Shown here: positions 6,953 through 13,119 of the stretch, in pieces
How the letters are laid out: the number at the start of each line of letters is the position of its first letter
Position numbering within the stretch: position 1 is the stretch's first letter
DNA from: Patellaria atrata CBS 101060
Lineage: Eukaryota
NCBI GenBank assembly: GCA_010093705.1
Contig: MU006102.1
Location: forward strand, 376,123 to 440,122
DNA length: 64,000 nucleotides
Reading direction: 5' to 3'
The notes under the pieces: model-generated
Databases searched by the model: none
What the model saw: only the letters and a program-made list of their open reading frames with translations
Told to the model about the DNA's origin: nothing
Position numbers and translations under genes: made by a program

Positions 6953-8346
6953 ATGTCCCGACCTCCTCCTCCGCCGCAACTACATCCTCCAAATACCAGT
7001 CCAACTCCTTCCGCCATGGCCGAAACTCAACATGCACCGAGACCTCAGTTATTCACTGCCCATCGTCGTCTTCCCCAACAAGGATATCGACTTCCTCCTT
7101 TGACCATTCCAGCTTTGACACAGTCCGAAAATCAATACGGTCAACCAGCGGGTCAAACTCTCCCTGGCATTCATTCCGCTCCTCCTGCTCGGCCATTACC
7201 TCGACAACAGCTTCCTCATGCTGCACCGGTCGAAAAACTTCTGGGGACCAACCCATACACTCCTCCAAGATCCGAAAGTGCCCTTTCACCACAGCAATTT
7301 GCACATCCTCAATCCCCAAGATCTGCTATAGAATGGCAACCGCAACGAAGAGGGGAGCGGCATCCTTTTGAAGAACCTAGACCGCCTCCTAATCAAGAGT
7401 CCGCATTCCTATCACCCATCGAAGGCCAGAGAAAGCTCTCCTATGCACCTCTACCTTCCCCGAATTATACGCCAAATTTTCCCGGCAGCAATGCACCCTA
7501 TCGTGGTTCTTCAAGTATTCAACGTGAACCGGCTATCCCTCCTTATGCTCCACCTCCACCGTCATATCGTGATCCCGCTCCAATAGCTCCACCTAGGGCA
7601 GCACCTCAACAACCCCAGCAACGGCACTCGACAGAGTCAGAGTGAGTTTGATCTATTCCCTGCGTGATATTTTTCCCTAATCAAAGTTTAGGCCGTATTT
7701 GTATCGGCTTACTGTCCGACAACAACCGATTGCTGCTAGAGCTTGCGGTTTCGGTGAGCGAGATCGTCGAGTGATCGATCCGCCTCCAATTATCCAACTT
7801 ACGGTAACTGACAAGAAAACCGGAGTACCGGATACGGATGAACTCAGGTATTCACTTAATGTCATTCATTGCACCTTATGGAATGAACATGGCACCCACG
7901 AAGAAACCGCTCTTATGCAGCCTGACAGACGTACGACACGGAGACTCATGGGCCAACTCGTAGCATCTCCATCCGTTGCGAAGGACGAGCATGATGTCGA
8001 AGGATGCTTCTTTTGCTTTCCGGATCTCTCATGCCGCACGCACGGCAGGTATCGGTTACGTTTCGTGATGATCAGGATTGACCCGTCGAATTTGATTGTA
8101 GGGGACGTGTCACCAATTTTAGCGGATGTGATGAGTGACGTGTTCACGGTATATACGGCCAAAGATTTTCCGGGGATGCGGCCCAGCAGTGCGCTTACCA
8201 GAGCATTGAAGCTGCAGGGATGCAATATCCAAGTCAAGAAAGGCAACGAGAAGTCACTGGCAGCACGCAAGAGAGCCAAATCACCCGAGGAGGCTGAGGG
8301 TGAGGAAGACGATACGGACCCGAATAAAGCAAAGCGTAGGCGTTAA
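6953..8346 (+). CDS. velC: Velvet-domain regulator, VelC-type (exons 6953-7641, 7692-8346)
   Basis: C-terminal velvet domain YRLTVRQQPIAARACGFGERDRRVIDPPPIIQL...FCFPDLSCRTHGRYRLRF...FTVYTAKDFPGM after a Pro-rich N-terminus. The GTGAGT..TTTAG intron joins the two ORFs in frame. Start codon uncertain. Confidence 0.88.
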
Positions 8347-9282
8347 CAGGCGTTCAAAGCAGTTCCCAAGATGATCACCTCATGAGACGACATGACGATA
8401 CATTTTGGATTTATCATTCCAATTATCATAGAGATTGGTTGGTTGCATGGCATTAGGAGCTTTTGATTATCTTTCAGTCAGACGACATTTTTCCGACGTT
8501 TTTTTCTAACGAGTGCAAAGCAAACGAAGAAACAAGTCAGATTTTCTTTTTTTTTTTTTTTTCTTCTCTTTCTGTGGAGTGGAATTCGTACTTTTTCGGC
8601 GTCGTACATTAGCAAGTTACCAGCAATGCGGTCCTTGATCCCCATTATTCGCCCAGCTTTGACGGCTGTGGCTTACGCCAGGACCATTTTCGTTAGTTGT
8701 ACAGCAGGAAGGCATTTGAGGAATCTTTTTTCATTTTCATTTTTTTGTGATGGGAGCATTTGACGACACGTTTTGGAACTTTTCAGCAGGTATGGCATGT
8801 TGGAGAGTGTACCTTATGATACAGCACATGATACCACGTTGTTAACGAATGAATAGTTTCTAACTATATCATGAATGAAAAAGGTCTTCATAGTAACCTA
8901 AGCTTCTTGAAGATTTTTAAAATGAGTGATTGGCGATATTGCATGGTAGTACATTGTTCTTGAGCATATTGAGATACATATCAAAAGCCCCCGATGCGAG
9001 GGGAGCAAGGAGGATAAGTTGGTAGTGGGGCAGCTGGAAGTTTGATACGGTATAGTAAGGTATTGTTCAGAACACTTCACTACTGGCTGTAATCGAGCTT
9101 TGGGGGCTTATTAAGTTATTAACAGGACAATGTAGGCGCTAGCAGGGAATTGTAGTTCTACCGCGGGGTCCCTTTCTCGAGGGCCACTTTATTACTACGC
9201 GACTCTTTCCAAAATTTCTTCTTCTCTTCTTTCCCCCTGGCAATAGCCAGGAAAGGCACCCTATACTTCCGATAATACCAAT

Positions 9283-11422
9283 ATGAAATATGTTCTTGTC
9301 TCCGGAGGTAAGTGGCGTCCGAGACATATCCTATTTCGTCTTCAATTGTCCTAATGCAGACGTGTACAGGTGTTATTAGCGGTGTTGGGAAAGGCATCAT
9401 TGGTAAGAATATTGTCCCCCAAGCGGCTAGTCGCGTCATGGTGGAGAGCTTTCCAGTCTGATCTCAACGCGTCACAGCCTCTTCTACCGGCTTGCTACTC
9501 AAGACCACCGGTCTCAAGATAAGTTTTTCCCCTTTGATCAATGCACAATGTGCTTTTTATCCTTCGGACAATTACTGATATTCCTTGCACGTATCCTCCA
9601 TCAAAGTAGACCCCTACATCAATATCGATGCGGGGACTATGAACCCCAAAGAGTGAGACACAACATCTCATCTGCATAATTCAAGCATCACTAACTTTCT
9701 ACGTAGACATGGGGAGGTTTTTGTTCTTGACGACGGCGGTGAGGTTGATCTGGACCTTGGGAACTACGAGAGATATCTCAACATTACCTTGACCCGTGAA
9801 AACAATATTACCACCGGAAAGATCTACAAACATGTTATTGAGCGAGAACGGAAAGGTGACTACCTTGGAAAAACCGTACAGGTGGTTCCACATGTCACAG
9901 ATGCTATCCAGGAATGGATAGAACGAGTCGCAAAGTTACCCGTAGATGACACAAAGGAAGAACCGGACGTGTGTAGTAGGTTATCTCGCTCAAAACTATA
10001 AGCAACAAAATTAATAACAGTAACTCTTTCAGTTATCGAGTTAGGAGGAACGGTCGGCGATATCGAGAGTATGCCATTCGTTGAGGCTATGACACAGCTG
10101 CGGAGGCGTGCAGGGAAGAACAACTTCATACAGATTCACGTATCTTACATACCTCTCATCAATGGGGAACAGAAGACAAAACCCACACAGCAGGCGATCA
10201 AGATGGTACGAAGCGCTGGTTTAATTCCGGACCTGGTAAGTGCTTGGTTGGCATCACCCATACCCACTTCTAACGTGGACCACAGATCGCATGTCGCTGC
10301 GAGGTACCACTAGAACCATCCACAGTCGACAAGCTCGCACGGTTCTGTCAGGTTGAACTCGAACAAGTGGTCGTGGTGCGTGATATGCCGTCTATTTATC
10401 AAGTACCTGTCCTTTTGGAAGAGCAGGGACTGGTTCCTCTCCTTGCTGATGTCCTCAAACTTGGTGACATGGAACTATCGAAATCATTAATAGCCAAGGG
10501 AGCAAACATTTGGCATCAATGGAAGGCTCTAACCATCAAGGACACTCGATTTCTGGATCCAGTAAACATCGTCTTAGTGGGCAAATACACCGAATTACAC
10601 GATTCATACTTGAGCGTCATTAAATCCTTAGAGCATTCGGCAATGCGATGCAGACGCGCACTAAAGCTTATTTGGGTTGACTCCGAGCATCTCGAACTAA
10701 AGACGCAAGAGAAAGAACCCGCAAATTATCATAAAGCATGGCACGATGTATGCACAGCCGACGGTATCCTTGTCCCAGGCGGGTTCGGTTATCGGGGTAC
10801 CGAAGGTATGATGGCGGCGGCTAAGAGGGCTCGCGAAAACGGCACACCGTACCTCGGCATTTGTCTCGGCATGCAGATAGCCGTCATCGAGTACGCTCGA
10901 AACTTGTGTGGCATCACGGACGCATCATCTGAGGAGTTTCGCGAGGCACCGAGTGACAACAAGGTTATCGTGTTCATGCCCGAAATCGACAAGGAGACCA
11001 TGGGTGGTACTATGCGTCTCGGTCGTCGTCCTACCATCTGGCAGGAAGGTTCTGAGTGGAGCAAACTTCGCGCTCTGTATGGGCAACAGAAAGAAATTCA
11101 TGAGCGACATCGTCATCGGTATGAGGTCAATCCTAAGTATATCGAAAAACTGTCACAGGCGGGCCTCAACTTTGTCGGCAAGGACGATAAAGGCGAGCGT
11201 ATGGAGATTATTGAACTTAAGAATCATCCTTGGTTTGTGGGTGTGCAATATCATCCGGAATACTTGAGTAGAGTGCTGGATCCGAGCAGACCGTACCTTG
11301 GATTCGTTGCGGCGAGTGCGAAGTGCTTGGACGAGATCACGAAGCAGATGGGATGGAAGAAGGATGGGCTTGTTAATGGTACCAATGGTGTTAACGGCGC
11401 CGATGACGGTACTCACTTCTGA
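9283..11422 (+). CDS. URA7: CTP synthase (exons 9283-9307, 9370-9402, 9478-9518, 9591-9652, 9707-9975, 10033-10235, 10286-11422)
   Basis: Spliced N-terminus [78 protein letters not shown]. Glutaminase motifs [26 protein letters not shown] and QYHPE present. Confidence 0.98.
9519..9590 (+). other. Non-canonical AT-AC intron (72 nt) with U2-type signals
   Basis: AAG|ATAAGT...TACTGAT...TTGCAC|GTATCC. Removal gives the conserved [12 protein letters not shown]. Retention introduces an in-frame TGA at 9576-9578. Confidence 0.88.
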
Positions 11423-12264
11423 ATATCTCGTTGATCCGAAACATCTGAGGATAGGATAGCAGGTAAATAGGGGATCATAGGAGAGTGAATGCGGTCATGA
11501 GATAATGTAGATAAGATCGGTCATGGTTTCGGTTTGCAGAAATGGGTGGGTATATGGGAATCCTGATGATGATGCTTCCTTAGGTTTCTGAGGGAGAGCA
11601 ACAAGTTTTTTGACACTAATAGTTATGTAGGACCTGTGATATTTCATGTACATTTTACACTTCTCCTCTATATAAATGTACTGTACAGATGCACAAAAAT
11701 ATTATTATACAGTTATACAATCATGGTTGGCGAAAGCGTGAGCACGCGTACCCCTGATGATCAATTCCGCGTCTTCCATCTCGAGTCCTCACGATAGTTC
11801 TAAAGTACGACACAATTCCAGAAAACATCTCTAGATTTTCAATCCTCATGTCTACATCATCTGATTCCAGCCCTTTCTTTCACATCAGCGACCGATGTTC
11901 GAGCAGTGAAATAATCGAAAAGGACCAAGAAAATGAGACACGTCGAACTACCGACGAAACCCCGGCCGATAACCAACAACCCCACAAACGCAGCGAGGAG
12001 GATATCCCCCCGCGTCCCCATTGAAAAAATGAGAGAAAGCATCAGACTCCGCTCCCGACAATACCAATAAGAAAAAACCCTCCTCCTCGACGAATTACTA
12101 AAACGATCCGCTGCTGCCAACGCTCTCCCGCAAAAGAGGGGACCGGGCCGACCGCGCATCTGGAAAGACGCCGCGGATCGGCAGCGAGGGTTCCGGGAGA
12201 GGAGGAAAAGAGAACGAGAACAACTTCTAACGAAGGACTTCCTCCTCAACTCCAACCGCGCAAG

Positions 12265-13119
12265 ATGTCCGTATCAGACTCAAAAATCGTGTCCACGGAG
12301 CCATTAGTGCGTATCCCCCACCCCTAAACCCCCCCACACATTCATCAATCGACCACAGGACTCCAAAGACGCCCGCTGGACGAAATTAGTCAAGTACCTC
12401 TTTCCCCCGCCCTTTTATCCCCCTTCTTTCCCCTCCCCCCACTAACTAACACCCGACAGAACAACCTACACAGACCCGCACGGCGCAACCCGCGACTGGG
12501 AATCCGCCATCCGCCCCACGCGCCCTGCCGACAGCCCCATCGACGGCGTCGGCATCCTCGCCCTCCTCCACCGCCCCTCGGGCTCGGAAATCCTGCTGCA
12601 GAAACAGTTCCGCCCCCCCGTCGGCGGCGTCGCGATCGAGATCCCGGCCGGGCTCGTTGACGAAGGTGAAACGGCGGCGCAGGCGGCGGTCAGGGAACTC
12701 AGGGAGGAGACGGGGTATGTGGGTGTTGCTGCGGGCGTTGGTCCCATTATGTTTAACGGTGCGTTGTGCGTTGTTCCTGTGACCTTATATTACCCTTTAT
12801 ACCCCCGTGTTTCAGTTGAGGTTGAAGACTAAGAGCTAACTAAACACCCCCCCGCCCCCGGGCCCCCACAGACCCCGGCTTCTGCAACACGAATCTCAAA
12901 ATCGTCCACGTGACAATCGACCTCTCGCTGCCGGAGAACCAACCGCAGAACCTGAAACCGAAGCTCGAGGAGAACGAGTTCATCGAGACCTTCTCCGTTC
13001 CCGTCGCGGAGCTGTACGCGCGCTGTAAAGAGTGGGAGCGCGAGGGTTTCGCGATCGATGCCCGTGTTGGGACGTTGGCGGAGGGGGTCGAGGTTGCGAG
13101 GGGGTTGGGGTTGAGGTAG
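12265..13119 (+). CDS. YSA1: ADP-ribose pyrophosphatase, Nudix family (Ysa1/NUDT5-like), 4 exons
   Basis: Spliced MSVSDSKIVSTEPL/DSKDARWTKLVK/TTYTDPHGATRDWES...QFRPP...EIPAGLVDEGETAAQAAVRELREETGY (Nudix box)...DPGFCNTN...IDARV. Confidence 0.92.

Follow-up and report, generated by a model that had tools for sequence, protein, structure and literature searches.

The CTP synthase gene of the fungus Patellaria atrata CBS 101060 raises the question of how an intron that begins with AT and ends with AC can be removed from the transcript of an essential gene, and why such ends have been kept. The gene lies within a stretch of 64,000 nucleotides of contig MU006102.1 (assembly GCA_010093705.1, forward strand, positions 376,123 to 440,122), here called the window, and all positions are counted from its first letter. 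According to our analysis, the interval 9519-9590 is with high probability a genuine and ancient U2-dependent intron of the 'AT-AC type II' class, the third intron of the gene, which is probably kept by a mutational lock on its terminal bases. The features on which the argument draws are the following; the basis of each is given in brackets.

9283..11422, + strand: CTP synthase (URA7-type) gene, ATG to TGA, seven exons, 589 amino acids (exon model and translation)
9283-9307 and 9370-9402, + strand: exons 1 and 2 (exon model)
9478..9518, + strand: exon 3, ending in ...CTCAAG (exon model)
9516..9524, + strand: 5' splice site AAG/ATAAGT, the U2-type consensus with A for G at +1 (sequence)
9519..9590, + strand: intron 3, 72 nucleotides, phase 0, AT-AC termini (sequence and exon model; AT-AC at the same position in the related loci L001, L002, L003, L005 and L006)
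9573..9579, + strand: branch-site motif TACTGAT (CTRAY type), presumed branch A at 9578, 12 nucleotides from the 3' end (sequence)
9588..9590, + strand: 3' splice site CAC/ (sequence; relatives have GCAC at four loci or CTAC at one)
9591..9652, + strand: exon 4, 20 amino acids (Pfam match and gapless alignment to a solved CTP synthase)
9707-9975, 10033-10235 and 10286-11422, + strand: exons 5 to 7 (exon model)

Gene product and boundaries of intron 3

Translation of the seven joined exons gives one open frame of 589 amino acids, and only one CTP synthase gene was seen within the window. The remaining introns are all GT-AG (five out of five), short (50-75 nucleotides) and provided with CTRAY-like branch sites. 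At the level of domains, the whole product matches the Pfam family CTP_synth_N (PF06418, E = 9.1e-120) over profile positions 1-265 in a single stretch, followed C-terminally by GATase (PF00117, E = 9.6e-40); a synthetase domain followed by a class-I glutamine amidotransferase is the domain order of CTP synthases (PyrG/URA7). Solved CTP synthases match the product at E = 1e-233. Because the spliced product is identical, letter for letter, to a public protein of 589 amino acids (P0001, deposited at NCBI as 'CTP synthase [Patellaria atrata CBS 101060]'), the AT-AC model of this gene is already in the public annotation. The available part of the paper on 101 Dothideomycetes (PMC7082219), the class to which P. 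atrata belongs according to a taxonomy check, gives the Joint Genome Institute pipeline as the source of annotation and nothing further.

Exon 4 by itself, although only 20 amino acids long, matches positions 33-51 of CTP_synth_N (E = 5.3e-6), and residues 1-102 of the product align without a gap to the solved CTP synthase chain 7rmc, in which the segment GLKVTSIKIDPY stands opposite the 12-residue junction segment. Splicing at the AT-AC ends would join ...GLK exactly to VSSIK.... At the DNA level, the layout is AAG/ATAAGT...TACTGAT...TTGCAC/GTA, with the 5' flank ...GGTCTCAAG and the 3' flank GTATCCTCC.... Exon 3 ends in G and the intron in C, while the intron starts with A and exon 4 with G; because the bases differ in both comparisons, the boundaries cannot slide, and intron 3 has AT-AC termini with unambiguous limits. 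If the intron is retained, translation ends at TGA 9576-9578, a codon contained in the branch-site CTGAT (9575-9579).

What could be proposed instead is that splicing really takes place at a nested GT...AG pair, such as donor 9523 with acceptor 9606, and that AT-AC is a misreading. In-frame pairs of this kind are indeed present in the window, and several deposited models of relatives use them (...GLKISHVSSIK..., ...GLKINYVSSIK...). Enumeration yields eight in-frame and stop-free GT/GC...AG pairs near the site, yet all eight lose or replace VSSIK(V), residues which are aligned to conserved positions of the Pfam profile and of the solved enzyme. Moreover, the alternatives vary by locus: L002 has no in-frame GT/GC-AG alternative at all, and none is common to the related loci, whereas AT-AC splicing yields one and the same conserved peptide in the window and at all related AT-AC loci. 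The preliminary description of this DNA had reported a 72-nucleotide intron running from ATAAGT to TTGCAC at 9519-9590, limits that are unable to slide to GT-AG, a nearest GT/AG alternative that costs conserved residues, and a stop at 9576-9578 on retention; the sequence is exactly as stated there, and our comparison of edge bases, enumeration of pairs and translation bear out the other three statements.

The terminal bases could also be wrong, through an error of sequencing or assembly, or the gene could be a decaying pseudogene; nothing more than the rarity of AT-AC introns speaks for this. Logan contigs of two DNA runs, re-assembled from reads, span 9200-11500 with no difference to the window and word depths of 316 and 399; both runs are from one sample, which is possibly the source of the assembly itself, and they exclude an assembly slip only. 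The AT...AC bases are not an assembly slip. Identical termini occur at five other loci, the 589-amino-acid frame is intact, and the last exon shows at least 70% identity to orthologues throughout. We therefore regard error or decay as a practically negligible explanation.

The same intron in related fungi

Using exon 5 as a query, we scanned metagenome contigs and fetched 80 loci, in which an intron at the junction was scored from high-scoring segment pairs spanning residues 28-40, with a check of length. No intron is found at the junction of 69 loci, which are mostly non-fungal or intron-poor sequences; the junction lies beyond the reach of three further loci, and two carry a GT-AG intron that is displaced five to six codons downstream (L047 and the alga-like L077). 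The remaining six have an intron exactly at the GLK/V(S/T)SIK boundary, which is AT-AC in five and GT-AG in one:

L001: ATATGT...GCTGAC...TTGCAC, 69 nucleotides
L002: ATAAGT...GCTGAC...AACTAC, 52 nucleotides
L003: ATATGT...ACTGAC...AAGCAC, 52 nucleotides
L005:32-88: ATATGT..CTGAC..GCAC, 56 nucleotides
L006:1323-1379: ATAAGT..CTGAC..GCAC, 56 nucleotides
L062:1203-1270: GTAAAT...CTGAT...GGCCAG, GT-AG at the same boundary

The five AT-AC introns (52-69 nucleotides) have otherwise dissimilar interiors, and introns 1, 2 and 4 of these loci are GT-AG wherever they are covered (L005 reaches intron 4 only). Judged by the named proteins most similar to them, L002 is Cadophora-like (97% identity), L001 is closest to lichen-forming or allied lineages (about 80%), L003 to members of several classes (about 82-88%), and L005 and L006 to Helotiales (Calycina marina, 84%), which speaks against placing the last two in Sordariomycetes. 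The introns of L005 and L006 are near-identical, and their sole difference, T or A at position +4, corresponds to two common fungal variants of the 5' splice site.

As to whether the AT-AC ends are conserved or have been switched, both apply. L062, for which the closest matches with a name belong to Lecanoromycetes (Lecanora helva, 71%; Cornicularia; Psora), has GT-AG at the shared intron position. The comparison of loci therefore shows that the terminal pair has switched at least once; the lineage concerned, a Lecanoromycete-like one, is now GT-AG. L062 has a further, probable GC-AG intron (AG/GCAAGC...TCAAG/) at about 1288-1334; it interrupts the Asp codon of IDPY, where the alga-like L077 has its GT-AG intron. 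The Dothideomycete-like sequences L008:367-796 and L009:1-339 (about 69% identity) are without introns 1-4 and are not full-length open frames, which points either to a loss of introns in the 5' part or to transcripts that were spliced in part; with a longest open stretch of 234 amino acids, they were rejected as spliced transcripts and left out of the RNA evidence.

A second and much broader source of information is found in the predicted proteins. We pooled 276 orthologous proteins and fragments and tallied them at the junction. As the intron is in phase 0, a gene model that overruns exon 3 translates the first intron codon, and one that enters exon 4 out of the intron translates the last intron codon. 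The junction is intact in 79 proteins, and 127 are fragments or lack the region. Overrun from exon 3 into the intron occurs in 14 models, where the residue after GLK is I (13) or M (1), all encoded by ATx codons. Overrun from the intron into exon 4 occurs in 30, where V(S/T)SIK is preceded by H (24), Y (4) or N (2), all xAY; K, Q or E, which would be expected from AG, are present in none of the 30. Seven proteins bear both footprints, e.g. GLK-ISH-VSSIK and GLK-ICLVSAHDDGHWPRRH-VSSIK, which brings the total with a footprint to 37 out of 276, and in 33 more models the start is a methionine within exon 4. As read from these translations, the footprints fit AT...AC and never GT...AG. Hence the termini are preserved in orthologues, at five of six loci in DNA and in the protein footprints.

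The footprints originate from seven classes of Pezizomycotina, i.e. Dothideo-, Leotio-, Eurotio-, Lecanoro-, Lichino-, Geoglosso- and Pezizomycetes, with taxonomy checked for one species per class. Contributing genera are Phyllosticta, Kalmusia and Verruconis, which we take to be Dothideomycetes. The others are Cadophora, Lachnellula and Rhynchosporium (Leotiomycetes), Microsporum, Trichophyton, Ophidiomyces and Exophiala (Eurotiomycetes), Lasallia (Lecanoromycetes), Phylliscum (Lichinomycetes), Geoglossum (Geoglossomycetes), and Rhizina and Trichophaea (Pezizomycetes). The intron had been described as rare; with footprints in seven classes and five AT-AC loci, it is no isolated case but common to the subphylum.

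These proteins also bear on the matter of a nested GT...AG splice. The exact junction appears in the 79 intact proteins mentioned above, among them at least 14 from transcript-like contigs (hand count), and Phyllosticta capitalensis has one deposited model that is intact beside another that starts with MH+VSSIK. Together with the loss of conserved residues in every window pair, this leaves nested splicing a very improbable reading. One transcript-like contig encodes P0065, an open frame of 614 amino acids on 2112 nucleotides that reads ...GLKVSSIK... and has 97% identity to the L002 gene, its translated 5' leader included (32 of 33 residues). It is regarded as transcript-like because 2112 nucleotides are too short for introns of the L002 type (52-113 nucleotides). 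If this contig is complementary DNA (cDNA), it hints that the AT-AC intron may be removed exactly in the P0065/L002 lineage.

The intron was claimed to be invisible to standard gene predictors, which does not hold for P. atrata itself, as P0001 is the AT-AC model, and does hold for many relatives. A systematic annotation error is thereby explained, with at least 37 deposited or predicted models broken at the junction plus the 33 that start in exon 4; most of these 70 models are without exon 3, and in many the GGVISGxGKG nucleotide-binding segment is partly or wholly missing as well. Permitting AT-AC at intron 3 of the CTP synthase gene would repair them. In many taxa the 3' end of the intron reads ATG-CAC in frame with exon 4 (L005 and L006 end in ...ATGCAC), so that predicted proteins start with 'MH' followed by V(S/T)SIK and lose the first 33 residues, as in the relatives P0002, P0104, P0153, P0169, P0174, P0179 and P0219.

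A different kind of model is P0197 (910 amino acids, deposited under the tree Carpinus fangiana), in which a velvet domain is combined with the part of CTP synthase that follows from HGECFVL. It has the look of a chimera of the same two neighbouring fungal genes as in the window, with exons 1-4 of CTP synthase skipped, and it probably represents fungal DNA in a plant assembly. In the window, an open reading frame for a velvet factor (PF11754, E = 2e-61) is located directly upstream of the CTP synthase gene at 7681-8346 (+ strand). Between the two, at about 8542-8575 and roughly 700 nucleotides upstream of the ATG, there is a long T/CT-rich run. Downstream of the gene, an open stretch at 12446-12832 (+ strand) contains a NUDIX domain (PF00293, E = 2.5e-14). 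A scan of the whole 64-kb window at the Rfam gathering thresholds gave no RNA family.

Spliceosome, age and persistence

The six AT-AC introns (window and five loci) are uniform in their signals. Each follows an exon end AAG and starts with ATAAGT or ATATGT, i.e. with one of the two 5' sites common in fungi except that A stands for G, and each has CTGAC or CTGAT at 9-12 nucleotides from the 3' end (CTGAT in the window, CTGAC at the five loci). The 5' splice site is thus of the U2 type, i.e. in agreement with the consensus except at +1 in the sense used in PMC1557818, in the window and at all five loci. PMC5029451 refers to a 'very strong /ATAAGT consensus' of U2-type AT-AC introns. An ATATCC start and the branch motif TCCTTRAY were found in none of the six; more generally, neither the 5' motif ATATCCTT (or GTATCCTT) nor TCCTTRAY at 10-15 nucleotides from the 3' end, which would mark a U12-type intron, is present. 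The last ten intron bases of the window, TTCCTTGCAC (9581-9590), bear some likeness to the U12 branch motif TTCCTTRAC. Their place is the splice site itself and not 10-15 nucleotides upstream, and the likeness is absent from the related loci; we judge it to be due to chance.

Judged by these motifs, the signals of intron 3 are U2-type, not U12-type. Three papers state, in the parts available, that Ascomycota are without minor-spliceosome RNAs and minor introns (PMC10639083, PMC2396436, PMC2846911). From the signals and the published absence, we infer that intron 3 is probably removed by the major spliceosome. The earlier claims of a donor that is GTAAGT with A for G at its first base, of a U2-like branch site (TACTGAT), and of Pezizomycotina without a minor spliceosome, agree with these results, the latter in the form of a statement on Ascomycota as a whole.

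According to this model, U1 and U6 would recognize AAG/AUAAGU, the fungal consensus save for position +1, and ACUGAU, 12 nucleotides upstream of the 3' end, would be used by the branch-point machinery. An A...C pair between the first and last intron bases would replace the usual G...G pair and so allow the second catalytic step, with the exact joining of ...GLK to VSSIK... as the presumed outcome. In support of such a pairing, a G-to-A change at the first intron base is rescued by a G-to-C change at the last one, 'although less efficiently' (PMC1557818).

Regarding the age of the intron, Pezizomycetes are among the classes with footprints, and the AT-AC state is therefore placed near the base of Pezizomycotina; we infer that the last ancestor shared by most or all Pezizomycotina probably already had AT-AC ends at this codon boundary. 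The persistence of these ends may be explained by a mutational lock: an intermediate with GT-AC or AT-AG would cripple the splicing of a core enzyme, and because either single change does so, both ends must change together, so that the AT-AC intron would drift only in its interior. This two-hit lock is the most economical account of persistence, and a special regulatory role is not needed to explain the data. The GT-AG state of L062 indicates that an escape from the lock is possible.

One alternative explanation for the persistence, which takes up the control point suggested in the preliminary description, could be selection: the AT-AC ends would be a slow or proofreading-sensitive step, and retention of intron 3, with its stop at 9576-9578 and nonsense-mediated decay (NMD), would throttle CTP synthase. 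The span of seven classes over which AT-AC persists, the lower efficiency of the A...C combination ('less efficiently', PMC1557818) and the early stop upon retention fit such a control point, as does the transcript-like contig P0025, which reads through intron 3 into exon 4 while its downstream introns are gone. However, the need for two simultaneous changes predicts persistence equally well, and a lineage with GT-AG at the same position exists. Read-through of intron 4, a GT-AG intron, was found in three transcript-like contigs (P0062, P0112, P0202); because it is equally visible, retention is not specific to the AT-AC intron, and the proposition of a more frequent retention of intron 3 than of the other introns was dropped as unsupported. 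We consider a control point unlikely.

On the origin of the intron, it is conceivable that a U12-type AT-AC intron passed to the major spliceosome upon the loss of the minor one in Dikarya. Such a relic would account for the old age of the AT-AC termini and for the ATAT start of three of the six AT-AC introns, and a minor spliceosome is reported for early fungi (PMC2396436). Yet no U12-type intron occurs at the boundary among the 80 loci (69 are intronless there, and early-diverging fungi were not sampled), the current signals are fully U2-type, and among the matches listed we found no relevant literature that links CTPS1/CTPS2 to minor or U12-type introns. This origin, which is compatible with the proposed present-day splicing by the major spliceosome, seems to us decidedly unlikely. 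Taken in its widest form, the proposition would be that AT-AC termini have been selected across Pezizomycotina as a second-step bottleneck which ties CTP synthase to spliceosome fidelity factors or NMD, or that they mark a converted U12-type intron; we hold this to be rather doubtful. Under selection, the termini would have persisted in Pezizomycotina for several hundred million years.

Returning to a U2-dependent intron kept by a lock, several points weigh against our interpretation. The runs that hold the P. atrata stretch consist of DNA-like contigs, and the 9518/9591 junction in this species is deduced. The two DNA runs may be the assembly's own source and hence are not independent proof of the terminal bases; for this reason the weight for these bases rests on the agreement across species. 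In the case of P0065, the status of the contig as cDNA is taken from its length only. The footprints are indirect and come from wrong models, and the residues H, Y and N establish xAY but leave xAC unproven; the footprints are uniform, though, and agree with the six AT-AC DNA sequences. Among the 276 proteins and 80 loci, Sordariomycetes and Eurotiales contributed intact or truncated models only, and neither footprints nor DNA. The lack of a minor spliceosome in P. atrata rests on literature about Ascomycota. Finally, the lock is argued from published mutant behaviour and is compatible with selection for slow splicing.

Significance and comparison with known AT-AC introns

In the open-access literature, among the matches listed, we found no paper on the AT-AC intron of CTP synthase, its conservation, its switch to GT-AG or the resulting annotation error. 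The U2-type AT-AC class, AT-AC junctions in Pezizomycotina and the deposited P. atrata model are already known. What is added here is a well-supported and deeply conserved fungal case to the short list of natural major-spliceosome AT-AC introns, with L062 as a natural switch from AT-AC to GT-AG for comparison. As one intron in one essential gene, it provides a simple test bed for a two-hit mutational lock versus selection, and if selection or an origin from a U12-type relic were true, it would be a natural and genetically tractable model of AT-AC splicing by the major spliceosome. Its chief practical value lies in gene annotation; for specialists in splicing and fungal genomics, its interest is moderate.

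One mechanistic counterpart is artificial. In the engineered yeast intron of Parker and Siliciano 1993, as cited in PMC5029451 and PMC1557818, a change of the first G to A was reportedly rescued by a change of the last G to C. The pairing logic is the same and explains why AT-AC works and single-end changes fail; that intron is an artificial reporter, whereas the CTP synthase intron is natural and conserved.

Among natural introns, the U2-dependent AT-AC introns of animals (SCN4A/SCN5A, TAF2; Sheth et al. 2006, PMC1557818) are alike in their AT-AC ends with the consensus /ATAAGT, in their rarity and in their long conservation between orthologues; only 15 are given for human and three for fly in that paper. 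In contrast to these, the intron of CTP synthase belongs to a fungal housekeeping gene and is a fungal intron of 50-70 nucleotides with a CTRAY motif near its 3' end, and the use of the major spliceosome is derived here from the signals and from the published absence of the minor one in Ascomycota. U12-type AT-AC introns share the terminal dinucleotides only: none of the six CTP synthase introns has the ATATCCTT 5' motif or TCCTTRAY, and U12-type introns need a machinery that the host phylum is stated to lack (PMC10639083, PMC2396436, PMC2846911).

AT-AC junctions from transcriptomes of Pezizomycotina are events of the same class, and they come from the subphylum of P. atrata itself. They are infrequent there, at 0.03% of the SnowyOwl introns (PMC4084796), and have been hypothesized for fungal xylanase genes (PMC1557818). 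In Fusarium graminearum they are reported for FGSG_08743 and FGSG_10073, and the non-canonical sites of seven genes, one AT-AC gene (FGSG_10073, primers listed) included, were confirmed by Sanger sequencing (PMC3577648). Neither of the two can be CTP synthase, as judged from the lengths given there (FGSG_10073, 786 nucleotides; FGSG_08743, 210 nucleotides), and a text search of the open-access literature gave no paper that mentions their locus tags. These cases concern other genes, and deep conservation is not described in the available parts of PMC3577648, PMC4084796 and PMC1557818.

The nested AT-AC intron of RPL30 in Saccharomyces cerevisiae (PMC5029451) is likewise endogenous and occurs in an ascomycete without a minor spliceosome. 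There, the AT-AC event is a side product of 1-2% that uses a non-consensus 5' site, whereas at CTP synthase AT-AC splicing, at a consensus 5' site, would be the sole route to a functional messenger RNA.

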